In this document: positions 10,927 through 54,021 of the stretch, piece after piece | Position numbering within the stretch: position 1 is the stretch's first letter | How the letters are laid out: each line of letters starts with the position of its first letter | Assembly (NCBI RefSeq): GCF_044324785.1 | Contig: NZ_CP172127.1 | Strand: one strand, 5' to 3' | Length of the DNA: 64,000 bases | Source of the DNA: Escherichia coli | GTDB lineage: Bacteria > Pseudomonadota > Gammaproteobacteria > Enterobacterales > Enterobacteriaceae | Program-made: the position numbers and the translations under genes | The notes under the pieces: generated by a model | What the model saw: the letters and a program-made list of their open reading frames with translations, nothing else | Databases searched by the model: none | What the model was told of the DNA's origin: nothing

Positions 10927-12609
10927 ATGGTTACCTGGACCCAAATGTATATGCCGATGGGAGGACTGGGGCTATCCGCTCTGGTCGCCCTGATCCCAAT
11001 AATATTCTTCTTCGTTGCACTCGCGGTATTACGTCTGAAAGGACATGTCGCTGGAGCAATAACCCTTATATTATCTATTCTGATTGCGATATTCGCCTTT
11101 AAAATGCCGATTGATATGGCATTTGCTGCTGCGGGCTATGGCTTTATTTATGGTTTATGGCCTATTGCGTGGATTATTGTCGCGGCGGTATTCCTGTATA
11201 AATTAACCGTTGCCAGCGGCCAGTTCGATATTATCCGCAGCTCGGTTATCTCCATCACCGACGATCAGCGTTTGCAGGTGTTACTGATTGGTTTCTCCTT
11301 TGGTGCGCTGCTGGAAGGGGCGGCTGGCTTTGGCGCACCGGTGGCGATTACCGGTGCGCTGCTGGTGGGCCTGGGCTTCAAACCGCTATACGCGGCGGGG
11401 CTGTGTCTGATTGCCAACACTGCGCCGGTGGCGTTTGGTGCGTTGGGTGTGCCAATTCTGGTCGCCGGTCAGGTAACGGGAATCGATCCGTTCGACATTG
11501 GCGCAATGGCGGGACGTCAGTTACCGTTCCTGTCGGTTCTTGTGCCGTTCTGGCTGGTAGCAATGATGGACGGCTGGAAAGGGGTGAAAGAGACGTGGCC
11601 AGCGGCGCTGGTTGCAGGGGGAAGCTTCGCTGTCACTCAGTTCTTTACCTCTAACTATATTGGTCCGGAACTGCCGGATATTACTTCGGCGCTGGTGAGT
11701 ATCGTCTCACTTTCTTTATTTCTTAAAGTCTGGCGGCCAAAAAATACCGAAACGGCAATCAGTATGGGACAATCCGCAGGTGCGATGGTGGTGAATAAAC
11801 CGTCTTCTGGCGGTCCCGTGCCTTCAGAATATCGTCTGGGGCAAATCATTCGTGCGTGGTCACCGTTTTTAATCTTAACGGTGTTGGTCACCATCTGGAC
11901 CATGAAGCCGTTTAAAGCGTTATTTGCTCCGGGCGGCGCGTTTTATTCACTGGTGATTAATTTCCAGATCCCTCATTTGCATCAACAAGTCTTGAAAGCG
12001 GCCCCCATTGTCGCCCAGCCGACGCCAATGGACGCGGTGTTTAAATTCGACCCCCTCTCCGCTGGCGGCACCGCTATTTTTATTGCGGCGATTATCTCGA
12101 TCTTCATCCTCGGCGTGGGGATCAAGAAAGGGATTGGTGTCTTTGCCGAAACGCTAATTAGTCTGAAGTGGCCGATATTGTCGATTGGCATGGTGCTGGC
12201 GTTCGCCTTCGTGACCAACTATTCCGGTATGTCCACCACGCTGGCGCTGGTACTGGCTGGTACAGGCGTGATGTTCCCATTCTTCTCACCGTTCCTCGGC
12301 TGGCTGGGCGTATTCCTTACCGGCTCGGACACTTCTTCAAACGCCCTGTTTGGTTCACTGCAATCGACCACGGCGCAGCAAATCAACGTCTCTGACACCC
12401 TGCTGGTGGCAGCAAACACCAGCGGCGGCGTAACTGGCAAGATGATCTCCCCGCAATCTATCGCTGTGGCCTGCGCCGCGACGGGCATGGTGGGGCGAGA
12501 ATCTGAACTGTTCCGCTACACCGTGAAGCACAGTCTGATTTTTGCCAGCGTTATCGGCATTATCACGCTGTTGCAGGCGTATGTGTTTACCGGGATGTTA
12601 GTTTCGTAA
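10927..12609 (+). CDS. glcA: Glycolate/lactate permease (LctP family)
   Basis: 560-aa polytopic membrane protein; last gene of the glc operon. Confidence 0.9.
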
Positions 12610-12618
12610 GTCAATAAT

Positions 12619-12650
12619 GCCGGATGATCGTTAATCTCATCCGGCTTCGT
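12619..12650 (+). terminator. Putative intrinsic terminator after glcA
   Basis: Hairpin gccggatgatcg-ttaatc-tcatccggc immediately after the glcA stop, followed by a moderately T-rich tract. Confidence 0.4.
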
Positions 12651-13093
12651 TTACATTATTCTGTCTTATTAATGGAAAAATTATTTCCCGCTTTATTATC
12701 CATGCGGCAATAATGTTTTGCGTTCAGATAACATGCTAAATAATTAAGAGCGTGAGAACATCTATTTTTTATCACGCAAAACAAGTCTGTATTAATTATG
12801 TTCGCTTGATGAGCAAACTCCGTTCTATCTGTTGCTTTTGCAATCTTAATCGTTAAAACTACCAACAAATTTATATAGTTACGTTGTGAATGGTTGTTAA
12901 TTTTTTGTTTATTGAAATTTCGTAAAAATAACCATCCAGACATCGAATAGGGGTTATTCTTATAAATTTTACCTGTTTTTCTATCAATGATGCCGTTTTC
13001 TTAAGAATGGAGGAAGTTATTAAAGAAGATAAAGCATAAAACTATTTCCTCGGTTACGAATCTTTTAACTTTGTTTTGTCACTTGCGTTATTA

Positions 13094-16000
13094 ATGAATA
13101 AGAAATTTAAATATAAGAAATCGCTTTTAGCGGCTATTTTAAGCGCAACCCTGTTAGCCGGTTGTGATGGTGGTGGTTCAGGATCGTCCTCCGATACGCC
13201 GTCTGTAGATTCTGGATCAGGGACTTTGCCGGAAGTGAAACCCGATCCAACACCAACCCCGGAGCCGACACCTGAGCCGACGCCGGACCCAGAACCTACG
13301 CCGGATCCAACACCTGATCCTGAGCCGACACCAGAACCGGAGCCAGAACCTGTTCCTACGAAAACGGGTTATCTGACCCTGGGCGGAAGCCAGCGGGTAA
13401 CTGGTGCTACCTGTAATGGTGAATCCAGCGATGGCTTTACCTTTACGCCAGGCAATACCGTGAGTTGTGTGGTGGGCAGTACGACCATTGCAACATTCAA
13501 CACCCAGTCAGAAGCTGCGCGTAGCCTGCGTGCGGTTGACAAAGTGTCGTTTAGCCTGGAGGACGCGCAGGAGCTGGCGAATTCTGAAAATAAGAAAACC
13601 AACGCCATCTCTCTGGTGACGTCCAGCGACAGTTGCCCCGCAGATGCAGAACAGCTTTGTCTTACTTTCTCGTCAGTGGTTGATCGCGCGCGATTTGAAA
13701 AACTGTATAAGCAAATTGATCTGGCAACAGACAATTTCAGCAAGCTGGTCAATGAAGAGGTGGAAAACAATGCTGCGACTGATAAAGCGCCGTCCACCCA
13801 TACCTCAACGGTAGTGCCAGTCACGACAGAGGGAACAAAACCGGATCTGAACGCGTCCTTCGTGTCGGCTAACGCGGAACAGTTTTATCAGTATCAACCC
13901 ACTGAAATCATTCTTTCCGAAGGCCAACTGGTGGATAGCCTGGGGAACGGTGTTGCTGGCGTTGACTACTACACCAATTCAGGCCGTGGCGTAACTGACG
14001 AAAACGGTAAATTCTCCTTTAGCTGGGGCGAAACCATCTCCTTTGGTATCGATACCTTTGAACTGGGCTCAGTACGTGGCAATAAGTCGACCATTGCGCT
14101 GACTGAATTGGGTGATGAAGTTCGCGGGGCAAATATCGATCAGCTCATTCATCGTTATTCGACGACTGGTCAAAATAATACTCGTGTTGTTCCGGACGAT
14201 GTACGCAAGGTCTTTGCCGAATATCCCAACGTGATCAACGAGATAATCAATCTTTCGTTATCCAACGGTGCGACGCTGGATGAAGGCGATCAAAACGTTG
14301 TGCTGCCTAACGAATTTATCGAGCAGTTTAAGACGGGTCAGGCCAAAGAGATCGATACCGCGATTTGTGCGAAAACCAACGGTTGCAACGAAGCTCGCTG
14401 GTTCTCGCTGACAACGCGCAATGTTAATGACGGCCAGATTCAGGGCGTTATCAACAAGCTGTGGGGCGTGGATACGAACTATCAGTCTGTCAGCAAGTTC
14501 CACGTCTTCCATGACTCTACCAACTTCTATGGCAGCACCGGTAATGCGCGCGGTCAGGCAGTGGTGAATATCTCCAACGCGGCATTCCCGATTCTGATGG
14601 CGCGTAATGATAAAAACTACTGGCTGGCCTTCGGCGAAAAACGCGCCTGGGATAAAAACGAGCTGGCGTACATTACGGAAGCGCCTTCTCTCGTTGAGCC
14701 GGAAAACGTTACGCGCGATACCGCCACCTTTAACCTGCCGTTTATTTCGCTGGGGCAAGTCGGTGAGGGCAAACTGATGGTTATCGGTAACCCGCACTAC
14801 AACAGCATTTTGCGTTGTCCGAACGGTTACAGCTGGGAAGGCGGTGTTGATAAAAACGGTCAGTGTACGCGTAACAGTGATTCTAATGATATGAAGCACT
14901 TTATGCAGAACGTGTTGCGCTATCTGTCCGACGATAAATGGACGCCGGACGCGAAAGCCAGCATGACCGTAGGTACCAACCTGGATACTGTCTATTTCAA
15001 ACGTCATGGTCAGGTTACAGGAAACAGCGCTGAGTTCGGCTTTCATCCGGATTTTGCGGGTATCTCTGTTGAGCATTTAAGTAGCTATGGCGATCTCGAC
15101 CCGCAGGAAATGCCGCTGCTGATCCTCAACGGCTTTGAGTATGTGACTCAGGTTGGTAACGATCCTTATGCAATCCCGCTGCGAGCAGATACCAGCAAAC
15201 CGAAGCTGACTCAGCAGGATGTGACCGATCTGATCGCCTATCTGAACAAAGGTGGATCGGTGCTGATCATGGAAAACGTGATGAGCAATCTTAAGGAAGA
15301 GAGCGCGTCTGGCTTTGTACGTCTGCTTGATGCCGCAGGTCTGTCGATGGCACTGAACAAGTCGGTAGTAAATAACGATCCGCAAGGGTATCCGAACCGC
15401 GTTCGTCAGCAGCGCGCAACGGGCATTTGGGTCTATGAACGTTATCCTGCCGTAGATGGTGCGCTGCCGTACACCATCGATAGTAAGACAGGGGAAGTTA
15501 AGTGGAAATATCAGGTAGAAAACAAACCTGATGACAAACCGAAGCTGGAAGTTGCCAGCTGGCTGGAAGATGTAGATGGCAAACAGGAAACGCGTTATGC
15601 CTTTATTGATGAGGCCGATCATAAAACAGAGGATTCTCTGAAGGCTGCGAAGGCAAAAATCTTTGAGAAGTTTCCTGGATTAAAGGAGTGTAAGGACCCA
15701 ACTTACCACTACGAGGTCAACTGTCTGGAATATCGTCCTGGCACGGGGGTTCCGGTTACTGGTGGCATGTATGTTCCACAGTATACGCAACTAAGCCTTA
15801 ACGCCGACACGGCAAAAGCGATGGTGCAGGCTGCGGATTTAGGCACCAACATTCAGCGTCTGTATCAGCATGAGCTCTACTTCCGGACCAATGGTCGCAA
15901 AGGTGAGCGTCTGAGCAGCGTCGATCTGGAACGTCTGTACCAGAACATGTCGGTCTGGCTGTGGAATAAAATTGAATATCGTTATGAAAACGACAAGGAT

Positions 16001-17656
16001 GACGAGCTGGGCTTTAAAACGTTCACCGAGTTCCTGAACTGCTACGCCAACGATGCCTATACTGGCGGCACGCAGTGTTCTGATGAGCTGAAAAAATCGC
16101 TGGTCGATAACAACATGATCTACGGCGAGAAGAGCGTTAATAAAGCGGGCATGATGAACCCGAGCTATCCGCTCAACTATATGGAAAAACCGCTGACGCG
16201 CCTGATGCTGGGTCGTTCCTGGTGGGATCTGAACATCAAAGTTGATGTCGAGAAGTATCCGGGAGCGGTATCGGCAGAAGGTGAGAAGGTTACTGAAACC
16301 ATCAGCCTGTACTCGAATCCGACCAAATGGTTTGCGGGTAACATGCAGTCTACTGGCCTGTGGGCTCCGGCTCAGAAAGAGGTCACCATTGAGTCTACTG
16401 CATCAGTTCCTGTGACTGTCACCGTGGCGCTGGCCGACGACCTTACCGGACGTGAGAAGCATGAAGTCGCTCTGAACCGTCCGCCAAAAGTGACGAAAAC
16501 CTATGAGCTGAAAGCCAATGGTGAGATGAAGTTTACGGTTCCTTACGGTGGTCTGATTTATATCAAGGGCAACAGCCCACAGAATGAGTCAGCCGAATTC
16601 ACCTTTACTGGTGTGGTGAAAGCGCCGTTCTATAAAGATGGCGCATGGAAAAACGCTCTGAACTCCCCTGCGCCGTTGGGCGAGCTGGAGTCAGACGCTT
16701 TCGTCTACACCACGCCGAAGAAGAACCTTGAGGCCAGCAATTTCACTGGTGGCGTAGCAGAATTCGCTAAAGATCTGGATACCTTTGCCAGCTCGATGAA
16801 TGACTTCTACGGTCGTAATGATGAAGACGGTAAGCACCGGATGTTTACCTATAAAAACTTGACGGGGCACAAGCATCGTTTCACCAACGATGTGCAGATC
16901 TCCATCGGTGATGCGCACTCTGGTTATCCGGTAATGAACAGCAGCTTCTCGACGAACAGCACCACGCTGCCGACGACGCCGCTGAACGACTGGCTGATCT
17001 GGCACGAAGTTGGTCACAACGCTGCAGAAACGCCGCTGACTGTTCCTGGCGCAACTGAAGTAGCGAACAACGTGCTGGCGCTGTACATGCAGGATCGCTA
17101 TCTCGGCAAGATGAACCGTGTCGCTGACGACATTACCGTCGCGCCGGAATATCTGGAGGAGAGCAACGGTCAGGCATGGGCGCGCGGCGGTGCGGGTGAC
17201 CGTCTGCTGATGTACGCACAGCTGAAAGAGTGGGCAGAGAAAAACTTTGATATCAAGACGTGGTATCCAGATGGCAATCTGCCAGCGTTCTACAGCGAGC
17301 GTGAAGGGATGAAAGGCTGGAACCTGTTCCAGTTGATGCATCGTAAAGCACGCGGCGATGAGGTTGGCAAAACCAAGTTTGGCGAAAGAAATTACTGTGC
17401 CGAATCCAACGGTAACGCTGCCGACAAGCTGATGCTGTGTGCATCCTGGGTCGCCCAGACGGATCTTTCGGAGTTCTTTAAGAAATGGAATCCGGGCGCG
17501 AATGCTTACCAGTTGCCGGGAGCGAGCGAGATGAACTTCGAGGGCGGTGTGAGCCAGTCGGCTTACGAGACACTGGCGGCGCTTAATCTGCCGAAACCGC
17601 AGCAAGGGCCGGAAACCATTAATCAGGTTACCGAGCATAAGATGTCAGCTGAGTAA
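13094..17656 (+). CDS. sslE: SslE/YghJ secreted lipoprotein zinc metalloprotease (M60-like mucinase), type II secretion substrate
   Basis: Start at ATG 13094 (MNKKFKYKKSLLAAILSATLLAGC) with lipobox LLAGC, a Pro/Thr/Glu-rich linker, and the HEVGH zinc-binding motif near 17003-17017 (WLIWHEVGHNAAE). Sits directly upstream of the gsp genes. Confidence 0.9.
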   Translation: MNKKFKYKKSLLAAILSATLLAGCDGGGSGSSSDTPSVDSGSGTLPEVKPDPTPTPEPTPEPTPDPEPTPDPTPDPEPTPEPEPEPVPTKTGYLTLGGSQRVTGATCNGESSDGFTFTPGNTVSCVVGSTTIATFNTQSEAARSLRAVDKVSFSLEDAQELANSENKKTNAISLVTSSDSCPADAEQLCLTFSSVVDRARFEKLYKQIDLATDNFSKLVNEEVENNAATDKAPSTHTSTVVPVTTEGTKPDLNASFVSANAEQFYQYQPTEIILSEGQLVDSLGNGVAGVDYYTNSGRGVTDENGKFSFSWGETISFGIDTFELGSVRGNKSTIALTELGDEVRGANIDQLIHRYSTTGQNNTRVVPDDVRKVFAEYPNVINEIINLSLSNGATLDEGDQNVVLPNEFIEQFKTGQAKEIDTAICAKTNGCNEARWFSLTTRNVNDGQIQGVINKLWGVDTNYQSVSKFHVFHDSTNFYGSTGNARGQAVVNISNAAFPILMARNDKNYWLAFGEKRAWDKNELAYITEAPSLVEPENVTRDTATFNLPFISLGQVGEGKLMVIGNPHYNSILRCPNGYSWEGGVDKNGQCTRNSDSNDMKHFMQNVLRYLSDDKWTPDAKASMTVGTNLDTVYFKRHGQVTGNSAEFGFHPDFAGISVEHLSSYGDLDPQEMPLLILNGFEYVTQVGNDPYAIPLRADTSKPKLTQQDVTDLIAYLNKGGSVLIMENVMSNLKEESASGFVRLLDAAGLSMALNKSVVNNDPQGYPNRVRQQRATGIWVYERYPAVDGALPYTIDSKTGEVKWKYQVENKPDDKPKLEVASWLEDVDGKQETRYAFIDEADHKTEDSLKAAKAKIFEKFPGLKECKDPTYHYEVNCLEYRPGTGVPVTGGMYVPQYTQLSLNADTAKAMVQAADLGTNIQRLYQHELYFRTNGRKGERLSSVDLERLYQNMSVWLWNKIEYRYENDKDDELGFKTFTEFLNCYANDAYTGGTQCSDELKKSLVDNNMIYGEKSVNKAGMMNPSYPLNYMEKPLTRLMLGRSWWDLNIKVDVEKYPGAVSAEGEKVTETISLYSNPTKWFAGNMQSTGLWAPAQKEVTIESTASVPVTVTVALADDLTGREKHEVALNRPPKVTKTYELKANGEMKFTVPYGGLIYIKGNSPQNESAEFTFTGVVKAPFYKDGAWKNALNSPAPLGELESDAFVYTTPKKNLEASNFTGGVAEFAKDLDTFASSMNDFYGRNDEDGKHRMFTYKNLTGHKHRFTNDVQISIGDAHSGYPVMNSSFSTNSTTLPTTPLNDWLIWHEVGHNAAETPLTVPGATEVANNVLALYMQDRYLGKMNRVADDITVAPEYLEESNGQAWARGGAGDRLLMYAQLKEWAEKNFDIKTWYPDGNLPAFYSEREGMKGWNLFQLMHRKARGDEVGKTKFGERNYCAESNGNAADKLMLCASWVAQTDLSEFFKKWNPGANAYQLPGASEMNFEGGVSQSAYETLAALNLPKPQQGPETINQVTEHKMSAE

Positions 17657-17785: not shown

Positions 17786-18595
17786 ATGTTTTTTGATGTT
17801 TTTCAGCAATACCCCGCGGCGATACCCGTCCTGGCTACCGTCGGAGGATTGATTATCGGCAGTTTTTTGAATGTGGTGATTTGGCGTTACCCCATCATGC
17901 TGCGCCAACAAATGGCGGAGTTTCACGGTGAAATGCCGAGTGCGCAGTCAAAAATAAGCCTTGCGCTACCGCGTTCGCACTGCCCACATTGTCAGCAGAC
18001 CATCCGGATACGTGACAATATTCCGCTGCTCTCCTGGCTGATGCTCAAAGGGCGCTGCCGTGATTGTCAGGCGAAAATCAGCAAGCGTTATCCGCTGGTG
18101 GAGTTATTGACAGCACTCGCTTTTTTGCTGGCGAGTCTGGTGTGGTCAGAAAGTGGATGGGGACTGGCGGTGATGATATTATCCGCCTGGCTGATTGCCG
18201 CGAGCATCATCGACCTCGATAACCAATGGCTGCCCGATGTTTTTACTCAGGGCGTATTGTGGACCGGGCTGATTGCGGCATGGGCGCAACAGAGTCCGTT
18301 AACGCTACAAGACGCAGTTACCGGCGTCCTGGTGGGGTTTATCACTTTTTACTCCCTGCGCTGGATAGCCGGAATAGTTCTGCGTAAAGAAGCATTAGGC
18401 ATGGGCGATGTATTATTGTTCGCCGCTTTAGGTAGTTGGGTGGGGCCGTTATCACTGCCCAATGTTGCTTTAATCGCCTCATGCTGCGGCCTGATATATG
18501 CCGTTATTACAAAAAGAGGATCAACCACACTGCCTTTTGGACCGTGTTTAAGTCTGGGCGGTATAGCAACACTTTATCTACAGGCATTGTTTTAA
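17786..18595 (+). CDS. pppA: Prepilin peptidase (GspO-type) of the T2SS
   Basis: 269-aa membrane protein with an N-terminal CPHC...CRDC zinc-binding cysteine tetrad and polytopic profile. Confidence 0.85.
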
Positions 18596-18660
18596 TGATA
18601 ACCACGTCATTATCAAAGTGACATTTTAACTCTTATTAATAACCTTAGAGATTATTTACC

Positions 18661-19071
18661 ATGTCGATAAAACAAATGCCAGGGAGGGTATTAATATCGC
18701 TATTGTTGAGCGTTACAGGATTATTAAGTGGCTGTGCCAGCCATAATGAAAATGCCAGTTTACTGGCGAAAAAACAGGCGCAAAATATCAGCCAAAACCT
18801 GCCGATTAAATCTGCGGGATATACCTTAGTGCTGGCGCAAAGTAGCGGCACGACGGTAAAAATGACCATTATCAGCGAAGCGGGTACTCAGACCACGCAG
18901 ACACCTGACGCCTTTTTAACCAGCTATCAACGACAAATGTGCGCTGACCCGACGGTGAAATTAATGATCACTGAGGGAATTAATTACAGCATAACGATTA
19001 ATGATACACGTACAGGTAACCAGTATCAGCGGAAACTGGATCGTACCACCTGTGGAATAGTCAAAGCATAA
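18661..19071 (+). CDS. yghG: Small outer-membrane lipoprotein, putative secretin pilotin (YghG/AspS-like)
   Basis: 136-aa ORF with signal peptide and lipobox LLSGC; located between pppA and gspC. Confidence 0.7.
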   Translation: MSIKQMPGRVLISLLLSVTGLLSGCASHNENASLLAKKQAQNISQNLPIKSAGYTLVLAQSSGTTVKMTIISEAGTQTTQTPDAFLTSYQRQMCADPTVKLMITEGINYSITINDTRTGNQYQRKLDRTTCGIVKA

Positions 19072-19088
19072 CGTCGGGTAGATATAAA

Positions 19089-20048
19089 TTGGCGCGGGTT
19101 GTTTTTCGTGACGCACGAATTTATCTCATTCAATGGCTGACAAAAATTCGTCACACTCTTAACCAGAGACAATCTCTTAATACAGACAAAGAGCATCTGC
19201 GCAAAATTGCACGCGGGATGTTCTGGCTGATGCTGCTTATTATTTCTGCAAAAGTGGCGCATTCACTCTGGCGCTATTTCTCCTTTTCTGCGGAATATAC
19301 GGCGGTTTCCCCATCGGCGAATAAACCGCTCCGTGCGGATGCAAAACCGTTCGATAAAAATGACGTGCAATTAGTCAGCCAACAAAACTGGTTTGGCAAA
19401 TATCAACCCGTCGCCGCACCGGTAAAACAACCTGAATCTGCGCCTGTGGCAGAAACGCGTCTTAATGTGGTGCTGCGCGGGATCGCCTTTGGTGCCAGAC
19501 CCGGCGCGGTTATTGAAGAAGGCGGCAAACAGCAGGTCTATTTGCAGGGTGAACGGCTTGGCTCTCACAACGCGGTGATTGAGGAAATTAATCGTGACCA
19601 TGTGATGCTGCGCTATCAGGGGAAAATGGAACGTCTGAGTCTGGCAGAAGAGAAGCGTCCCACCATAGCCGTGACCAGCAAAAAAGCCGTCAGCGACGAA
19701 GCAAAGCAAGCTGTTGCTGAGCCTGCTGCCAGTGCGCCAGTTGAGATCCCGGCTGCCGTGCGTCAGGCACTGGCGAAAGATCCGCAGAAAATTTTTAACT
19801 ATATCCAGCTTACGCCTGTGCGTAAGGAAGGGATTGTCGGTTATGCAGTGAAACCGGGGGCAGATCGTTCTCTGTTCGATGCCAGCGGTTTTAAGGAAGG
19901 CGATATCGCCATTGCGCTAAATCAGCAGGATTTCACTGATCCACGAGCAATGATTGCTCTGATGCGGCAGTTACCTTCAATGGATTCCATTCAACTTACG
20001 GTTTTACGCAAGGGTGCGCGCTACGACATTTCCATCGCGCTGCGCTAA
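19089..20048 (+). CDS. gspC: T2SS inner-membrane component GspC
   Basis: 319-aa ORF with one predicted TM segment (FWLMLLIISAKV) and a C-terminal PDZ-like region. Start uncertain: the track start is TTG and the first in-frame ATG is at 19218. Confidence 0.7.
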   Translation: MARVVFRDARIYLIQWLTKIRHTLNQRQSLNTDKEHLRKIARGMFWLMLLIISAKVAHSLWRYFSFSAEYTAVSPSANKPLRADAKPFDKNDVQLVSQQNWFGKYQPVAAPVKQPESAPVAETRLNVVLRGIAFGARPGAVIEEGGKQQVYLQGERLGSHNAVIEEINRDHVMLRYQGKMERLSLAEEKRPTIAVTSKKAVSDEAKQAVAEPAASAPVEIPAAVRQALAKDPQKIFNYIQLTPVRKEGIVGYAVKPGADRSLFDASGFKEGDIAIALNQQDFTDPRAMIALMRQLPSMDSIQLTVLRKGARYDISIALR

Positions 20049-20077
20049 CCGCATTTAATCCAGGAGAATCATTCATC

Positions 20078-22138
20078 GTGTTTTGGCGTGATATGACGTT
20101 GTCGGTCTGGCGTAAGAAGACAACTGGCCTCAAAACAAAAAAGCGTTTACTGCCGCTGGTGCTGGCAGCGGCATTATGCAGTTCACCGGTCTGGGCGGAA
20201 GAAGCCACTTTCACCGCTAATTTTAAAGATACCGACCTGAAATCGTTCATCGAAACCGTCGGCGCTAACCTTAATAAAACCATCATTATGGGGCCGGGCG
20301 TTCAGGGGAAAGTGAGTATTCGCACCATGACCCCGCTCAATGAACGCCAGTATTACCAGCTATTCCTTAACCTGCTGGAAGCACAGGGGTATGCCGTCGT
20401 ACCGATGGAAAACGACGTGCTGAAGGTGGTGAAATCCAGTGCCGCGAAAGTCGAGCCGCTGCCGCTGGTCGGTGAAGGCAGCGACAACTACGCGGGCGAT
20501 GAAATGGTCACCAAAGTCGTGCCGGTACGTAATGTGTCGGTACGCGAGCTGGCACCGATTCTGCGCCAGATGATCGACAGCGCAGGCTCAGGCAACGTTG
20601 TTAATTACGATCCCTCCAACGTGATTATGCTTACCGGACGCGCCTCAGTTGTGGAGCGCCTGACGGAAGTGATCCAGCGCGTGGATCATGCGGGTAATCG
20701 CACCGAAGAGGTGATCCCGCTGGATAACGCCTCGGCTTCGGAAATCGCCCGCGTGCTGGAAAGCCTGACGAAAAACAGCGGCGAGAACCAGCCTGCGACG
20801 CTGAAATCTCAAATTGTCGCCGACGAACGCACCAACAGTGTGATTGTCAGTGGTGACCCGGCCACGCGGGACAAAATGCGCCGCCTGATCCGTCGGCTGG
20901 ACTCAGAAATGGAGCGCAGCGGCAACAGCCAGGTTTTCTATCTCAAATACAGCAAAGCCGAAGATCTGGTCGATGTACTGAAGCAGGTCAGCGGCACGCT
21001 CACGGCGGCTAAAGAAGAGGCGGAAGGCACCGTCGGTAGCGGGCGTGAGGTTGTCTCCATCGCCGCCAGCAAACACAGTAATGCCCTGATTGTTACCGCG
21101 CCGCAGGACATCATGCAGTCGCTGCAAAGCGTGATTGAACAACTGGATATTCGCCGTGCTCAGGTGCACGTCGAGGCGTTGATCGTGGAAGTTGCCGAAG
21201 GTAGCAATATCAATTTCGGCGTGCAGTGGGCGTCGAAAGATGCCGGATTAATGCAGTTTGCTAACGGTACGCAGATCCCTATTGGCACGCTGGGTGCAGC
21301 CATTTCTCAGGCGAAACCGCAGAAAGGCTCCACGGTGATCAGTGAAAACGGCGCTACCACCATTAACCCGGATACTAACGGCGATCTCTCCACGCTCGCT
21401 CAGCTTCTTTCTGGCTTTAGCGGTACGGCGGTTGGCGTGGTGAAAGGCGACTGGATGGCGCTGGTACAGGCGGTCAAAAACGACTCCAGCTCGAACGTGC
21501 TCTCCACGCCGAGTATCACCACGCTGGACAACCAGGAAGCCTTCTTCATGGTGGGCCAGGACGTTCCGGTATTAACCGGCTCTACTGTTGGCTCTAATAA
21601 CAGCAATCCTTTCAATACGGTAGAGAGGAAAAAAGTCGGCATCATGCTGAAAGTCACGCCGCAGATTAACGAAGGAAACGCGGTACAGATGGTGATTGAG
21701 CAGGAAGTGTCGAAGGTGGAAGGACAGACCAGCCTCGATGTCGTGTTTGGCGAGCGCAAACTGAAAACCACCGTGCTGGCTAACGATGGTGAGCTGATCG
21801 TGCTTGGCGGTCTGATGGACGATCAGGCGGGAGAAAGCGTGGCGAAAGTGCCGCTGCTTGGCGATATCCCATTGATTGGTAACCTGTTTAAATCGACGGC
21901 GGATAAAAAAGAAAAACGTAACCTGATGGTATTTATCCGCCCGACCATTCTGCGTGACGGTATGGCGGCAGACGGCGTGTCGCAGCGCAAATATAACTAT
22001 ATGCGCGCCGAACAGATCTATCGCGATGAGCAAGGCTTGAGCCTGATGCCGCACACCGCGCAGCCGGTACTGCCAGCGCAAAATCAGGCTCTACCGCCAG
22101 AAGTTCGCGCGTTCCTTAATGCCGGGAGAACGCGTTAA
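20078..22138 (+). CDS. gspD: T2SS secretin GspD
   Basis: 686-aa ORF with signal peptide and secretin C-domain; GTG start with AGGAG Shine-Dalgarno at 20063-20067. Confidence 0.9.
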
Positions 22139-32246: not shown

Positions 32247-35200
32247 ATGAAATCAATATTGTATTATTTAGAGCCACGTACAGAATTAAATGACAAATTA
32301 TTTCGCTATGCAACACTACGCTCTTATCTACTACCTGAAATTGATGGCCTTAGGATAGCTGATAAGAGCCTCGATTTTAAAATGATCGTTTCTCGTACGA
32401 TTTATAATAAAGCAAAACAAAATAATTTAAAAATGGAGGGTATCGATTTTATAATTATTGATGAAGATGTATTTGAAAAGAACTCATATCTGAAGAATAT
32501 TAATGTTAGTAATGAATTATATCATGGGAATTTAAATATAAAGGCTAATGAAGAACTAAAATCAATCATATCTGCTTGCCTTCCTGTTGATTATAAACCA
32601 GATATTATTATTTCATATGAAAGCCCAGCTCCATTTTTTAAAGAGATATTTCCATCATCTTTACTTTTAAACGCTATGTTTGGAATTTTTTCAAGGGCAC
32701 CATTTCCTGCATATGGGTTATTAGACCCATGTGGTTTGTATGAATATTCATATCAATATAAATATGCTGATAAAATTCGTGCTGAGGAGATTTCAGAAGA
32801 AGAAAAGGAAGTTATAAAATTACTCAGAAGACAAAGTTCAAGAGCACTTGCTGCTTATCATCCTCTCAAGAAATATATTTCATCATTATATGAAAAATAT
32901 GATCGACTTGTTGTATTAGCATGTCAAGTGGATAACTATTTTTCTTATAATAGTTGTACCAATTATCCATCACAATATGCGATGGTGGAAGATGTTCTTT
33001 CTCAAGTTCCATCAAATATTGGTGTTATAGTTACAGAACATGGCTATAAAAGACAAATAAGTGACGAGCAAATTGAGTCTTTAAATGAAAAATACAGTAA
33101 TTTTATATATTTTTCTAAAAAAGATGTATTCACACCAAGTCAATTTATTCTTCCTTATGTAGATGGTGCTTTATCAGTCTCGTCATCGATTGGTTATCAG
33201 GCTGCTTTATGGCAGATTCCATATTTTGGTCTTGGAAAATCACAAGTCGATGTACTCTGTTCAAATACATCATTAATGAGCTTCGTTAATGATGTTGAAA
33301 AAGGCATAAAGATTGATCGTGATAATATTCTTTATGTTTTACTTTCAAAAGTTCACTTATCACATAAAAATGATTTGTTTAATGGAAAATCTTATCTAAA
33401 TAAGTTGAAGGATTTATTTAATAAGTTTACCTCTAATTGCGACGAATATGAGTATTTTAACACTAAAAAAAGTATTGATGAAGTTCGAAAAGATATCATC
33501 TGTGGCAACAGAGAATGGTTACTTAAAAAAAACTTTATTGACTCAAAATTAGTTCCTGAAGTAGACCATTTACGTGTTGCAATGTCGCATTCAAAAGCGA
33601 TCTCTTATGATCTTTTTGATACTCTTGTTGAACGTGATTTTGTTGAACCTCATGAATTATTTAATCTAATTGAATCCCGTGTACGTAATGAGTTAAACAA
33701 TAAAAACTTCCCTTTCTATTATGTAAGACGACAAGCCGAAATTGACTTGCGCAGAGAGACAAGAGGTGAGTTTGAAATTACTCTCGATGAAATTTACGAA
33801 AGATTTCCAAGATACTTTGATCTTACTTTAGAACAACTAGAGAAGATAAAAAATATAGAAATAGATGCTGAAGTCGAACTCGTTCATCCGAAAAAAGAAA
33901 TGGTTCGTGAATTTTATTTTTCTCAAATGATTTGTGAAAGTGTATCTATCATTACAGATATTTATCTTTCTCAGAATGTTATTGAGCGTATTTTACAAAA
34001 AGTAAAAATTAGTGGTTACAATAAATTATTGGTTTCAGCAGAAACTAAAACAAGAAAACATAACGGAACTATTTATCCTGAATATTTGAAATATATAAGA
34101 GATAATTTTGATATTAATGCAGGACAGGCTCTTCATGTCGGTGATAATAAACAAGCTGATGGTGATATGGCTAAAAAACATGGCATAAAAACATATGTAT
34201 TTCAAAAAGCGATTGATAATTACAAAAAATCTTTAATTGCTGATATTTTACGTTCCAGTATTAATCATCCAGGTATTTCGAGTTCTGTTATTAATGGTTT
34301 GTTTGCTAACAAATATCACGCAGGACACTGGTTTAAAATTAACAAGGAATCAATTTTTAATGCTGACGAATATAATTATGGCTATATGGCAATAGGGCCT
34401 CTTGTTGTTGGCTTTACTCAGTGGTTGTATCGGCGGGTTAATAAATTAGGTATCAAAAAATTATATTTCTTATCCCGCGATGGATGGATTCTTAAAAAAA
34501 CATTCGATTATTTTTATCCTGAATCATCATCTGGCATCAAGACCGAATACCTGTACAGCTCTCGTCGAACTGCAATGGTAGCATCGTTAAGAAATATTGA
34601 TGATATTATTGAAGTTGCCTCTCAAAACTTCAATGCTAGAAAGCTAAGTGACTTTTTATCTACTCGTTTTGGGCTGGATGTGGATACTGTTAAAAAATCT
34701 GTTCTTGAAAAATATAATTACAAGCATGACACTATTGTTTCTCCTTATTTTGAATTTGGAAAGCTGATTGGTTTTTTAAAAGATATTCATCATACAATAT
34801 TGTCTAATGCAAAAAATGAACGTGAAAGCTATATCGATTATTTACGAGAAACTGGATTTGAAAATGATTGCTTAAATGGCGGTGCTACTGTTGTTGATAT
34901 TGGTTACAGTGGTTCCATGCAATATTATTTAAAAAAAATACTGCAATGCCCTTGTGTGAACGGATTTTATTTTTTAACACATCACCATAGTCGTGATTAT
35001 TTTTCAAATGATCATTTTGAAGGTTTCTTGCAAAATCTTGATGATCATAAGATCGCTTATAGACATGGATTAAATGATCATGTGTTTATTTTTGAAGCAG
35101 CATTAAGTTCCCCTGAAGGAAGTCTGATTAAAATGGAAGGGAAAGGTCAAGAAAGAGAAATGATTTTTCTCGAGGCAGAAGAAGAGATTGTAAGAAAAAA

Positions 35201-35756
35201 TGCTCTATTAGGAACACATCGTGGCGTAATGGACTTTGTTCATGATATCAAAACTCGTTTTGGTTCTTACTTTAAATACATTGAATTTTCTCCTATTCTT
35301 TCTTCTCAACTTATTTTGAATTTTGCGAATAATCCCAACGGTATAGATGCAGGGATGTTTGCTTCTCATGAAGTCGAAAATGTTTTTGGTGGGGGGTCTG
35401 TATGCTTAATTTCGCCTTTACTAGATTGCTATAAGGACTCTAATGGCACCATTAACCCTAAAATTATCGATGAGTTATTAAAAGCATCTAAATGGAAGAG
35501 AGGTGCCAGTGCTTATTATAACTTAGTCAATGGAACTCAACCGCGAGTTAATCCTGCTAAAATGCCAGCGCCATCTGTTAACCCAGTTGTTGTGAAGCAA
35601 ACGCCACAAACTACTTATGCACATCCTTTAAAGACAACTACGCAGCGTAAACTTGCTAAGTTAAAAAAAGACCCATATTTATTCTTTAATGATTCCCAAA
35701 AACCTCTTTTAAAAAGTTTACGATTGTTCTTCAAAAATACATCAAAGCTTAATTAA
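32247..35756 (+). CDS. Putative multidomain capsule polymerase of kps region 2 (KpsC/KpsS-like glycosyltransferase domain + HAD-like phosphatase domain + uncharacterised C-terminal domain)
   Basis: 1169-aa ORF with AAAAGGAG Shine-Dalgarno; strongly AT-rich. The N-terminal part carries SVSSSIGYQAALWQIPYFGLGKS, resembling the TS..GFEALL...P.YAGWG motifs of KpsC and INSTAGISAL of KpsS in this window. Central HAD motifs DLFDTLV (33609-33629) and GDNKQADGD (about 34140-34166). Basic C-terminal tail. Confidence 0.6.
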   Translation: MKSILYYLEPRTELNDKLFRYATLRSYLLPEIDGLRIADKSLDFKMIVSRTIYNKAKQNNLKMEGIDFIIIDEDVFEKNSYLKNINVSNELYHGNLNIKANEELKSIISACLPVDYKPDIIISYESPAPFFKEIFPSSLLLNAMFGIFSRAPFPAYGLLDPCGLYEYSYQYKYADKIRAEEISEEEKEVIKLLRRQSSRALAAYHPLKKYISSLYEKYDRLVVLACQVDNYFSYNSCTNYPSQYAMVEDVLSQVPSNIGVIVTEHGYKRQISDEQIESLNEKYSNFIYFSKKDVFTPSQFILPYVDGALSVSSSIGYQAALWQIPYFGLGKSQVDVLCSNTSLMSFVNDVEKGIKIDRDNILYVLLSKVHLSHKNDLFNGKSYLNKLKDLFNKFTSNCDEYEYFNTKKSIDEVRKDIICGNREWLLKKNFIDSKLVPEVDHLRVAMSHSKAISYDLFDTLVERDFVEPHELFNLIESRVRNELNNKNFPFYYVRRQAEIDLRRETRGEFEITLDEIYERFPRYFDLTLEQLEKIKNIEIDAEVELVHPKKEMVREFYFSQMICESVSIITDIYLSQNVIERILQKVKISGYNKLLVSAETKTRKHNGTIYPEYLKYIRDNFDINAGQALHVGDNKQADGDMAKKHGIKTYVFQKAIDNYKKSLIADILRSSINHPGISSSVINGLFANKYHAGHWFKINKESIFNADEYNYGYMAIGPLVVGFTQWLYRRVNKLGIKKLYFLSRDGWILKKTFDYFYPESSSGIKTEYLYSSRRTAMVASLRNIDDIIEVASQNFNARKLSDFLSTRFGLDVDTVKKSVLEKYNYKHDTIVSPYFEFGKLIGFLKDIHHTILSNAKNERESYIDYLRETGFENDCLNGGATVVDIGYSGSMQYYLKKILQCPCVNGFYFLTHHHSRDYFSNDHFEGFLQNLDDHKIAYRHGLNDHVFIFEAALSSPEGSLIKMEGKGQEREMIFLEAEEEIVRKNALLGTHRGVMDFVHDIKTRFGSYFKYIEFSPILSSQLILNFANNPNGIDAGMFASHEVENVFGGGSVCLISPLLDCYKDSNGTINPKIIDELLKASKWKRGASAYYNLVNGTQPRVNPAKMPAPSVNPVVVKQTPQTTYAHPLKTTTQRKLAKLKKDPYLFFNDSQKPLLKSLRLFFKNTSKLN

Positions 35757-50957: not shown

Positions 50958-53804
50958 TCAGAAAGTCACATTCAGCGTGGCCTGACCGTTATAACCTTCA
51001 GCGCTGCTGCCGCTGACACTGTGGGCATAACCGGCCTGAACGCCCAGGGTGATATTTTCCCGGACACGGGCTTCCAGTCCGGCCTGCAGGTCCAGTGACG
51101 TGCCATTCCGGGACGGTGAGAACGTCATGTTACTGCCGGCGGCGGCTGTACCCATGCTCATGTCACCCCGGGAGCTGAAAGTGCGGATAACAGAAGGCTG
51201 TACCCACCAGTTCACCGGCAGTTCACTCACACGGTGTTTTGTACTGTCGCGCAGAGTGTCACGGGATGAGGTGCCTTCGCCAAAGGTCATATCGTTGTGG
51301 CTGCCCAGACGGAAGCCGGCACGCACATGTTGTGTACTGCCATGCCCGAACTTCACATAACCGGCGTTATCCTGGCCGTCATCCAGGGAGAGCCCCTGCC
51401 AGGTGTACTGCAGTTGTGGCTCCAGCATCAGGTTGTCAGTGATACTGAAGGGCAGACCGGTTTCCAGTGAGCCCAGCCAGCCCCAGCCCCGGGCGCGGAA
51501 GTCGTTATTGTCCGATGACGCTTTCATGCTGTGGCGGGTTCCCTGTGCCACAATGTCAGCCCACAGGCCGGAGGACGTGTGTGTCAGATTCAGGTATCCG
51601 CCCAGGCTGCCGGCATCATCCCGGACCGTGCCGGCGCGGGAACCGTCATCATCCTTAACATCAACGGAAGAATGGCCTGCAGCACCATATACCCCTGTCG
51701 TCAGAGACATACCGGCAACCTCTGTTCTGAGCAGGTCACCCTCCAGATGGACGAAGCCATAGCTGCCGCTGCTTTCCGGCGTGGCTCCACGGGCAATACC
51801 GCCGTTGTTATCGTGACCGAGATGACCGCCCTGAATGCTGAGACGGACGCTGTTATTTTCACCGCTTACACCGGTCTGATGGCTGCGGGAGCCTGCCAGA
51901 ATCCGGTCATAGTCCATTGCCTGTGTCAGCATGGAGGCATACAGGGGGACTTCAGCACGATAAGCATTTTCACTGCGCAGGTACCAGTCTTCATCGCTGT
52001 CACGGTTCAGGGTGTAGTTAAAGGCTCCGGCCTGAAGCGGGCGACTCAGGGCAAACGCACCTTCTTCTGTGGTGGCACCATTCTGTGCATCCACAACCCG
52101 GATACCCTGTCCGGAGGTTGCCACCCCGAGGTTACTGTTTCCGACATTTGTAAACGCAAGCCAGGTTTTGCCGGTTGCCTGACCACCATTAATCACCAGC
52201 TGGTCAGAGGTATTGCTGCCATCAAGGCGAACACGCATATTGATGGTGCCACCCTGACCGGTGAGGTTACTGGTTGTCAGTTTATGGAACGTTACCGGGG
52301 CGTTGCCTTTTGCAACAGCACGGCTCAGTACGGCATCCGGTGTTGTCTGATTGTCAAAGTAAATCTCCCCTGCGTTAACAATATCGCCGGTACTGACCAC
52401 ATCACCATTCAGTACCATGCTGGCGCCTTTACTGAGCTGTGTTCTGCCACTCAGACTTCCCCCGGCAGCCAGCATCAGTGTTCCACGATGTCCGACAGTG
52501 GTGTTGCTGGCCTGTCCCCCGGCATTAACCGTAAAGCTGCCGCCATTTTCCAGCAGCAGGTCGCTGGCCTGACCGGATATGCCATCAATACTGAACTTAC
52601 CGCTGGCATTGGTCCCCTCAACAGTGGCACCACTGTCTGCTATCAGGGCACCACCGGATGTCATGGTGACATCTGTTGCCTTACCACCGGCAGACACTGC
52701 CAGGGTACCGCCGTCATCCACCAGTGTTTTCTGCGCTGAATGGCCCTCCAGTACATCCAGGCGACCGCCGGACTCCAGAACAACGCCGTCAGCCTTACCG
52801 TTTTCCACTGTGAAATTGCCCAGACGGTTGCTGCCGGTGACGGTTGCCGCCGTACTGGTGACCAGTGCGCCGCCCTGCGTCAGGGTGACATTCGTGGCTG
52901 TACCACCGGCGTTCACCTGCAGTTTGCCTTTCTGGTTAACGGTGGTGAAATCCGCCAGACCACCTTCCTTGATAATCTGCCAGCCGTCACTGTTAACAAC
53001 AGTGCCAGACGCCGTACCGCCGTTGTGCACATACTGGTACCCCCCATTCAGCGTGGTATCCAGTGCGTGACCATGTACAGTCTGGTCGCCGCCGGCATAA
53101 ACCACAGTGGTATTTGCCGTTCCTTCAGCAGCCACAATCTGACGACCATTTTTATTGATGGTGGTGCGTACGGCATCTCCGTAGACGGTCTGCCCGGTAT
53201 CACCATTTTCCGCATCCGGTCCCCCTTCCGCGCCGGTATTCACAACCGTGTCGGTTGCCACTGCGCCGGATTTGACGGCCTGCCAGCCCTTCTCATTAAT
53301 GACGGTACCCGTTGCAATCCCGCCTTCATGTACCCACTGCTCACCGCCGTTCAGCGTGGTGTTCACTGCCTGCCCCTGAAGGCTCTGTCCGCCTCCGGCA
53401 CTGATAACCGTGTCTGAAACGCTTCCTCCGGCATTCACTCTCTGAAGACCACCACCGGTGACAGTAGTGTTGTTGGCGATACCGCCATTTTGTATCCATT
53501 GCCCGCCGGTATTGACCTCGTTATCCGGCCCATACTCCAGCCCGGTACTGATGGTCATTCCGTTGGTCGTACCGAAGACAATCTGGTTGTCATGATTTTC
53601 CAGTGCTCCGCCGCTCACGGTTTCTCCCGCCTGTACAACCGTGTCAGCAGCCAGTGCCGGGACTGATGTGACAGCAGCAAGAGACAGCGCAACCGCCACA
53701 CCGGCGCGTTTTCCCCGTGAGCGGGCCAGTTCGGAGGCCACCACCAGGGTGCCCGTAATGTGATTCCATACCAGCCTGTAGCTGGTGTTCAGATGTCGTT
53801 TCAT
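50958..53804 (-). CDS. flu: Antigen 43 self-associating autotransporter adhesin
   Basis: Start at ATG 53804 ([52 protein letters not shown] extended autotransporter signal peptide); repetitive beta-helix passenger; C-terminal beta-barrel ending in F. Confidence 0.9.
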
Positions 53805-54021
53805 CAGCTTTTCCTTACAGAGGGTGAATAAAAAAGCCGGTACCCACAAATGTGGATACCGGCAGGTACAAAACAGCATGGTCAGATAAAGTGTTTTTTC
53901 CCGGACATAAATGCTTCCCCTCTCTCATCCGCCAGAGAAGTATCAGTCCGTTGTGTGCAATTCCGTTCTGCATGATGAAGAGATTCAGCTGCCTTTTCGC
54001 AGGCCATTAACCACTATAAAT

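Follow-up and report, generated by a model that had tools for sequence, protein, structure and literature searches.

The N-terminus of the Escherichia coli mucinase SslE carries a proline-rich, acidic repeat behind its lipid anchor, and the locus raises the question of what such a tract is for: whether it is a source of length variation, a spacer that holds the enzyme away from the membrane, or a substrate for modification or cleavage. The original prediction, made from the letters alone, proposed that the DNA is near-repetitive and prone to slippage and length polymorphism, and that the peptide may serve as a variable spacer. We followed this up in a window of 64,000 nucleotides (the whole stretch of DNA analysed, from contig NZ_CP172127.1), in which the relevant features are as follows.

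13094..17656, plus strand: sslE (yghJ) coding sequence for a 1520-aa lipoprotein M60-like metalloprotease (mucinase), from NCBIfam, Pfam, the HEVGH motif and the RefSeq annotation of an identical stretch.
13094..13165, plus strand: signal peptide and lipobox LLAGC, from translation, with the Cys24 codon at 13163-13165 and Asp at +2.
13166..13240, plus strand: Gly/Ser/Asp-rich segment, aa 25-49 (DGGGSGSSSDTPSVDSGSGTLPEVK), the first part of the putative tether, from translation and the AlphaFold2 (AF2) model.
13241..13360, plus strand: (Pro-X)20 acidic tract, aa 50-89, from composition, codons, Tandem Repeats Finder (TRF), alleles and AF2.
13361..13783, plus strand: start of the first folded domain (published NT1), from the AF2 model, the family alignment and an NCBIfam subfamily model.
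17786..29553, plus strand: cognate T2SS-beta operon (prepilin peptidase, pilotin, gspC-gspM), from Pfam matches.

The gene is a complete sslE. Its product matches NCBIfam NF037973 metallo_SslE (lipoprotein metalloprotease SslE) at 3494.5 bits against a cutoff of 3000, with residues 1-1520 on model positions 1-1519, and it carries the Pfam domains DUF4092, M60-like_N and Peptidase_M60 (the last at E=6.6e-37), with the HExxH motif present in the translation as HEVGH at aa 1304. The full-length profile match, the lipobox Cys, the M60-like domain with HExxH and the adjacency to T2SS-beta are thus all found here, and the tract region is 100% identical over 701 nt to sslE of E. coli ATCC 11775. The gene lies directly upstream of the T2SS-beta operon, its secretion system, where Pfam recognizes Peptidase_A24, T2SSS_2, T2SSC, Secretin, T2SSE, T2SSF, T2SSG, T2SSL and T2SSM; this layout agrees with that reported elsewhere (bioRxiv 10.64898/2026.05.07.723501). 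Searches around the tract gave neither an Rfam match at E<=1 nor, in 12400-13700 or 12560-13400, any promoter-like site. Two terminator-like matches are weak and have no connection with the tract, and a minus-strand ORF (13369-13824) is taken as a chance ORF within a well-supported gene. The PDB holds full-length SslE-like entries (23px, 23py and 23pz).

The translation of 13094-13693 reads MNKKFKYKKSLLAAILSATLLAGC(24)-DGGGSGSSSDTPSVDSGSGTLPEVK-PDPTPTPEPTPEPTPDPEPTPDPTPDPEPTPEPEPEPVPT-KTGYLTLGG. The signal peptide and lipobox (MNKKFKYKKSLLAAILSATLLAG-C24) are followed by Asp25 and a Gly/Ser-rich stretch up to Lys49, and Cys24 is invariant in 16 aligned family members. From aa 50 to aa 89 the protein consists of dipeptide units (PD PT PT PE PT PE PT PD PE PT PD PT PD PE PT PE PE PE PV PT), with Pro at 20 of the 20 odd positions of the tract and no interruption of the X-Pro alternation. 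The X positions hold 8 Thr, 7 Glu, 4 Asp and 1 Val—i.e. 11 acidic and 0 basic residues, for a net charge of -11. Elsewhere in SslE Pro makes up 4.25% of residues, and the probability of 20 Pro at fixed alternate positions is ~10^-27; as such, the pattern is not due to chance. The 33-residue Pro/Thr/Glu/Asp-rich string singled out by the original prediction is found exactly at aa 54-86 (nt 13253-13351), but its placement just after the lipobox is wrong, as the 25-residue Gly/Ser/Asp-rich segment (nt 13166-13240) separates Cys24 from the tract.

The end of the tract coincides with the predicted start of the folded protein. In an AF2 model of aa 1-230, built from a 16-sequence alignment and read with DSSP, regular secondary structure first appears as a beta-strand at aa 90-95 (KTGYLT), with neither helices nor strands ahead of it. 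The pLDDT is <50 in aa 1-45 and lies at 50-79 across the tract. Likewise, the family alignment is conserved from aa ~90 on, with C107 and C125 invariant, and the match to the NCBIfam SslE/AcfD subfamily model (SslE_AcfD_Zn_LP) begins no earlier than aa 106. The published NT1 domain covers mature residues 67-211 (PMC8881592).

We then asked how the family of SslE treats this part of the protein. When aa 90-600 were searched exhaustively, and without a profile, against 1.84 billion representative proteins, the SslE/AcfD family proved small, with 44 matches at E<1e-30. A search with aa 90-420 yielded E. coli fragments for the most part, none of its matches being a full-length protein, and was the source of homologues P0009, P0027 and P0032. 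Thirteen representatives (29-90% identity) have their N-terminus intact, and in every one of them a linker of 28-65 aa follows the lipobox Cys. Of the linker residues, 18-36% are Pro, 12-25% are Asp or Glu and 0-7% are Lys or Arg, and the net charge lies between -3 and -14. The sequence of these linkers is unconserved; a composition that is conserved where the sequence is not marks a physical spacer. A strict Pro-X register is found only in the window's SslE and in P0047 (90% identical, 17 units), and the other linkers use motifs such as IEIPPDIPPP or EITPPPVEP, the latter type occurring in the distant homologue P0027, with Ile, Val or Glu at X positions in other family members. The linker of P0032 is rich in Ser, Asp, Gly and Asn and is not Pro-rich, which indicates that proline as such is not required. 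Asp at +2 is confined to the three Escherichia-like sequences (the window, P0047 and P0080), so any part of the model that relies on inner-membrane retention is not family-wide.

Linkers at this position are common in E. coli, where about half of the lipoproteins in the outer membrane have N-terminal disordered linkers of >22 residues whose length matters for sorting (bioRxiv 10.1101/2021.01.05.425367). The linker of SslE, with 65 residues (aa 25-89) lacking regular structure, belongs with these. As in RcsF, Pal and NlpD (El Rayes et al., bioRxiv 10.1101/2021.01.05.425367), it comes directly behind the lipidated Cys and the sorting residues, ahead of the globular domain, exceeds 22 residues, has no predicted secondary structure and is conserved in length and composition rather than in sequence. 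By contrast, SslE exits through type II secretion, while RcsF, Pal and NlpD were studied on the Lol/BAM route, and its linker is unusually long (65 aa) with a second half that is a strict, highly acidic Pro-X repeat and not generic disorder.

Two further systems resemble the tract in composition. The proline-rich spacer of TonB, (Glu-Pro)n-(Lys-Pro)n, likewise uses alternating X-Pro to link a distal functional domain with its membrane anchor, and PMC5413942, citing Kohler 2010, describes it as an extended polyproline-II (PPII) rod long enough to span the periplasm, a conformation that SslE would probably share. TonB differs in having acidic and basic halves, a transmembrane-helix anchor and a periplasmic location, whereas the SslE tract is purely acidic/Thr, lipid-anchored and thought to act at the cell surface; the likeness is compositional convergence and not homology. 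Similarly, the (Glu-Pro)n repeats of procyclin/PARP from Trypanosoma brucei (PF05887) are acidic Pro-X repeats on a lipid-anchored surface protein, but one that is eukaryotic and GPI-anchored. PF05887 (Trypan_PARP) is the only Pfam model that touches the tract, with 34.2 bits for the whole protein and 41.7 bits for its first 100 aa, where the gathering cutoff is 100; these scores indicate low-complexity, compositional resemblance and no family membership, and homology to procyclin was rejected. Another point of reference is the PulA pullulanase of Klebsiella, the classic T2SS-secreted lipoprotein, in which a large folded enzyme is kept lipid-anchored at the surface. Like SslE, PulA has a lipobox Cys, Asp at +2 and a low-complexity tether, which is Ser/Gly-rich; to our knowledge, it has no long, strict Pro-X acidic repeat of the SslE type.

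On this evidence we consider it likely that the lipidated Cys24 is joined to the first folded domain by an N-terminal tether of 65 residues, with a flexible Gly/Ser-rich part followed by the tract as its stiff half, and that the tract undergoes occasional in-frame slippage and is not a switch. Signal-peptidase-II-type processing would yield a mature SslE that begins with Cys-Asp, followed by 25 Gly/Ser-rich residues, the 40-residue strict Pro-X repeat and the folded body from residue 90. An alternating X-Pro tract of the TonB kind would form neither helix nor sheet and may instead adopt an extended polyproline-II-like rod, and at 0.31 nm per residue its 40 residues would reach ~12.4 nm. Being negatively charged, it should be kept away from the anionic LPS surface, and most gut proteases should have little effect on its Pro-X bonds. 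With such a tether, the ~160 kDa folded enzyme could keep its lipid anchor while handled by the adjacent T2SS-beta, whose operon downstream of sslE would explain the need for a long tether, and afterwards the tether would keep the mucinase away from the outer-membrane surface. A spacer function is plausible, based on family-wide conservation of the linker's composition and the published description of a "flexible linker" (PMC8881592). Recombinant SslE that lacks the linker still folds and is functional in vitro (PMC8881592), and the linker is therefore dispensable for catalysis.

Is the DNA that encodes the tract of a kind that would change length readily? TRF finds a period of 42 (2.1 copies, 80% matches, score 107) and also a period of 18 (70-83% matches), and a repeat search returns registers of 60 nt that are 65-75% identical. 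The 20 hexamer units fall into 13 distinct sequences, and no exact internal repeat is longer than 11 nt. Proline codons are mixed (CCG 7, CCA 6, CCT 6 and CCC 1), with CCG used for 7 of 20 prolines in the tract vs 41 of 63 in the rest of sslE (Fisher p=0.02). Near-repetitive is thus a fair description of this DNA, provided it is understood as loosely repetitive and not as a microsatellite.

To see how tract length is distributed in the species, 16 sslE alleles were retrieved and compared. The 5' end of sslE is matched in 4091 of 5426 complete E. coli genomes, with at least 80% query coverage in 4077, and alleles were counted using 42-nt junction-specific queries that are unable to seed on other alleles. 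Intact genes carry tracts of 18, 19 (in two DNA forms), 20, 21 or 22 Pro-X units, and all differences are multiples of 6 nt. The variant alleles are distributed as follows.

18 units: 52 of 4077 genomes, counting only matches with at least 80% coverage.
19 units, form a: 371 genomes, including an O25b:H4-ST131 strain.
19 units, form b: 179 genomes, including REL606.
21 units: 30 genomes, a tandem CCTGAT duplication on the window's own haplotype.
22 units: 5 genomes, including IAI1.

Altogether, 550 of the 4077 genomes (371+179) have 19 units, and the remaining 3440 (~84%) have 20 units or alleles outside the sampled set. Three systematic 59-row samples drawn down the ranked match lists, as a cross-check of lengths, give a similar picture: 49 with 20 units, 8 with 19, 1 with 18 and 1 with 22 in one; 50 with 20, 8 with 19 and 1 with 21 in another; and ~48 of 59 with 20 units in the last. 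The K-12 tract, which has Asn and Ile at two of the Thr positions, is matched at >=99% over 180 nt in 900 genomes, a level of identity that makes an indel impossible in those tracts. All 371 carriers of 19-unit form a share an identical 42-nt junction, and this commonest variant is therefore inherited and not recurrent. Form b has three different haplotypes downstream of it, and in each case an identical linked synonymous change (CCAGAG) accompanies it. Draft and Logan contigs contain a 7-unit allele (a 78-nt deletion) whose predicted product runs out into unrelated sequence, with a gene for an IS66 transposase behind it; no complete genome matched a search for the junction of this allele.

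Short direct repeats mark all indel junctions—i.e. ACGCC (-12), CCA (-6), GAGCC (+12) and CCGGAGCC (-78)—with microhomologies of 3-8 nt, and hot spots are located at about units 5-7 and 13-15. These short repeats fit the footprint expected of slipped-strand mispairing. Replication slippage between direct repeats of 3-8 nt may thus produce an occasional in-frame length change, and mixed synonymous codons would keep the repeats short, which would account for 20 units dominating the species and for variants that are no more than 1-2 units longer or shorter. Clonal sampling and a low mutation rate, and not selection on length, could also be the reason why 20 units dominates.

The comparison of repeat length across E. 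coli genomes proposed in the original prediction, with an invariant length as the outcome that would speak against it, shows that length is not invariant. The polymorphism is real, in frame and low-level, with one length dominant. The slippage-prone character of the tract holds insofar as every junction falls at a short direct repeat, but the outcome is occasional indels rather than hypervariability. The notion of a variable spacer fares less well: changes of 1-2 units correspond to ~0.6-1.2 nm on an estimated ~12.4 nm, and the range of 18-22 units to roughly 11.2-13.6 nm, which makes "variable spacer" too strong a term.

Could the tract nonetheless be a hypermutable simple-sequence contingency locus, in which slippage creates antigenic or functional length variants or on/off switching? 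Several length alleles with slippage-like junctions would be expected of such a locus, and the tract, with 40 of 1520 residues (2.6% of the length), holds 2 of the 7 indel sites in nine full-length proteins, although these were picked for their tract variants and the figure is therefore biased and no fair estimate of enrichment. Against this, length changes in intact genes are multiples of 6 nt throughout and cause no frameshift, ~84% of 4077 genomes have one length, and the junction shared by all carriers of the commonest variant and the 900 genomes with a K-12-like tract point to stability. Nor is there a long run of identical DNA units (13 distinct hexamers among 20, an 11-nt longest perfect repeat and TRF matches of 70-83%), or any frequent recurrent or frame-shifting length change, as junctions are identical within each variant class. 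Given in-frame indels, one dominant length and imperfect DNA repeats, we find phase variation extremely improbable and have dropped it.

A different alternative concerns the peptide itself. The eight Thr of the tract, together with Ser/Thr in aa 25-49, might be O-glycosylated, which would make the region a mucin-like, immunodominant stalk and not a bare spacer. In other secreted enzymes, linkers of Pro and Thr are classic targets of O-glycosylation. For YghJ/SslE, 54 O-glycosylated Ser/Thr sites are reported, the first of them mapped at residue 99 (PMC8417355), and no mapped site falls in residues 24-90. The mass-spectrometry map begins at residue 91-101 and is blind to the tract: K49 precedes Pro, leaving no cleavable tryptic site between residues 9 and 90, so that the linker is invisible to the published tryptic map, and the sole tryptic peptide covering the tract is predicted to be 67 residues long and lipidated. 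Rabbits given glycosylated YghJ strongly enriched proline-rich motifs of region 44-90, and antibodies to region 40-90 were strongly raised by the glycosylated antigen only (PMC10637626). The antigens of that study differed in host strain, in purification route and probably in lipidation, so the antibody contrast need not stem from glycans. Moreover, the Thr positions are unconserved, with Asn and Ile at two of them in K-12, and Ile, Val or Glu in other family members. Taken together, a glycosylated stalk is unlikely.

The linker could also be a processing site that turns anchored SslE into the soluble form found in supernatants, cut by a host or bacterial protease or by its own mucinase domain. 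SslE is present both on cells and in supernatants, with two bands reported (PMC5012682), and is described as both surface lipid-anchored and released (PMC3707838); M60-like enzymes cleave Pro/Thr/Ser-rich O-glycosylated mucin backbones (PMC8881592). Nevertheless, the literature examined reports no N-terminal sequence of released SslE, Pro-X repeats generally withstand proteolysis, and M60-type cleavage would first need a glycosylated tract, which is hypothetical. A further argument against a processing site comes from other T2SS lipoproteins, e.g. PulA, which are shed uncleaved, in micelles or vesicles, and keep their acyl groups. We regard this reading as very unlikely, and hold as decidedly unlikely a combined version in which the tract mimics a mucin Pro/Thr/Ser domain, with Thr O-glycans forming the main glycan-dependent epitope, and could also be a release-cleavage site for SslE itself, a host mucinase or an IgA1-protease-like enzyme.

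The proline-rich tether therefore remains our preferred reading, and as a feature the tract is an ordinary one that has already been described in the literature. Specifically, Corsini et al. 2022 noted that SslE has "an unstructured ~5 kDa region", drawn as "L: flexible linker" and removed for structural work (PMC8881592), and a 2023 epitope study called residues 44-90 a "poly proline-rich domain" that protrudes in an AlphaFold model (PMC10637626). The allele counts reported here add detail to a known linker and are not a discovery, and their relevance extends little beyond SslE biology. For SslE/YghJ as a vaccine candidate, they indicate that the N-terminal tract is nearly uniform, with 18-22 units and ~84% at 20 in ~4000 genomes. 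It is also useful for vaccine work that tryptic glycosylation maps miss the tract, though antibody data suggest a glycan-dependent epitope there. More broadly, the presence of an acidic, Pro-rich tether across the family suggests a mechanical requirement in this family's T2SS-secreted surface lipoproteins.

About 1335 of the 5426 complete E. coli genomes searched lack a match to the 5' end of sslE. A few carry it in 2–3 copies, and 5 of the matches are borne on plasmids (e.g. in strain ETEC1734, where it lies at 3 places). The gene is also labelled unevenly: the MG1655 reference record (NC_000913.3) names it "yghJ: putative mayloidogenic protein" (sic), and other RefSeq records list the same gene as "lipoprotein metalloprotease SslE".

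Upstream of the Pro-X tract, the residue that follows the lipidated Cys24 is an Asp, encoded in the window at:

13166-13168, codon for Asp25 (+2) of SslE

In E. coli, an Asp that follows the lipidated Cys at position +2 classically signals retention in the inner membrane, and the T2SS lipoprotein PulA also has Asp at this position. Among the SslE/AcfD-family N-termini, +2 Asp is found only in the three Escherichia-like sequences (the window, P0047, and P0080); in more distant members this residue is G, F, K, L, I, H, or N. A distant homologue with 44% identity is split into two neighbouring ORFs of 554 and 964 aa, and sits within a cluster of flagellar genes, on a replicon of 1.6 Mb, with no adjoining T2SS operon:

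L017 6001-10618, split SslE/AcfD homologue (GCA_030685495.1, CP131582.1)

In the window, a group 2 capsule cluster and further genes include the following:

30550-32060, kpsM/kpsT-like ABC transporter genes
32247-35756, ORF of 1169 aa
35866-36885, ORF of 339 aa
36935-42631, minus strand, kpsS/kpsC/kpsD-like genes
46167-47009, minus strand, DUF4942 protein
50958-53879, minus strand, Ag43/AIDA-type autotransporter (ESPR, AIDA, autochaperone, and beta-domain)

The 1169-aa and 339-aa ORFs, which lie between the two groups of kps-like genes, occupy the serotype-specific "region 2" position of the cluster, and neither has a Pfam match at E ≤ 1e-5. The autotransporter and DUF4942 genes are typical of an integrated island located 3' of the capsule cluster; the 64,000-nt window contains no tRNA genes.

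A contig from Logan (SRR11658625) carries an sslE allele in which the tract is down to 7 Pro-X units, through loss of 78 nt between two copies of the repeat CCGGAGCC:

L018 1501-2958, 7-unit sslE allele (protein P0009)

After about 370 aa, the predicted product gives way to unrelated sequence, in which it ends; this sslE copy is followed by a gene for an IS66 transposase. The 7-unit deletion junction occurs in none of the 5426 complete genomes. Elsewhere, in some E. coli genomes (matches H56–H58), the 5' end of sslE, including the Pro-X tract, is fused to T2SS genes, and the annotation beneath the match reads "AcfD | GspJ". Three predicted proteins found with SslE residues 90–420 (P0006, P0008, and P0013) combine a PARP-like N-terminus with GspK domains. 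The sslE-gsp fusions suggest deletion alleles that lack most of the sslE gene together with part of the gsp operon.
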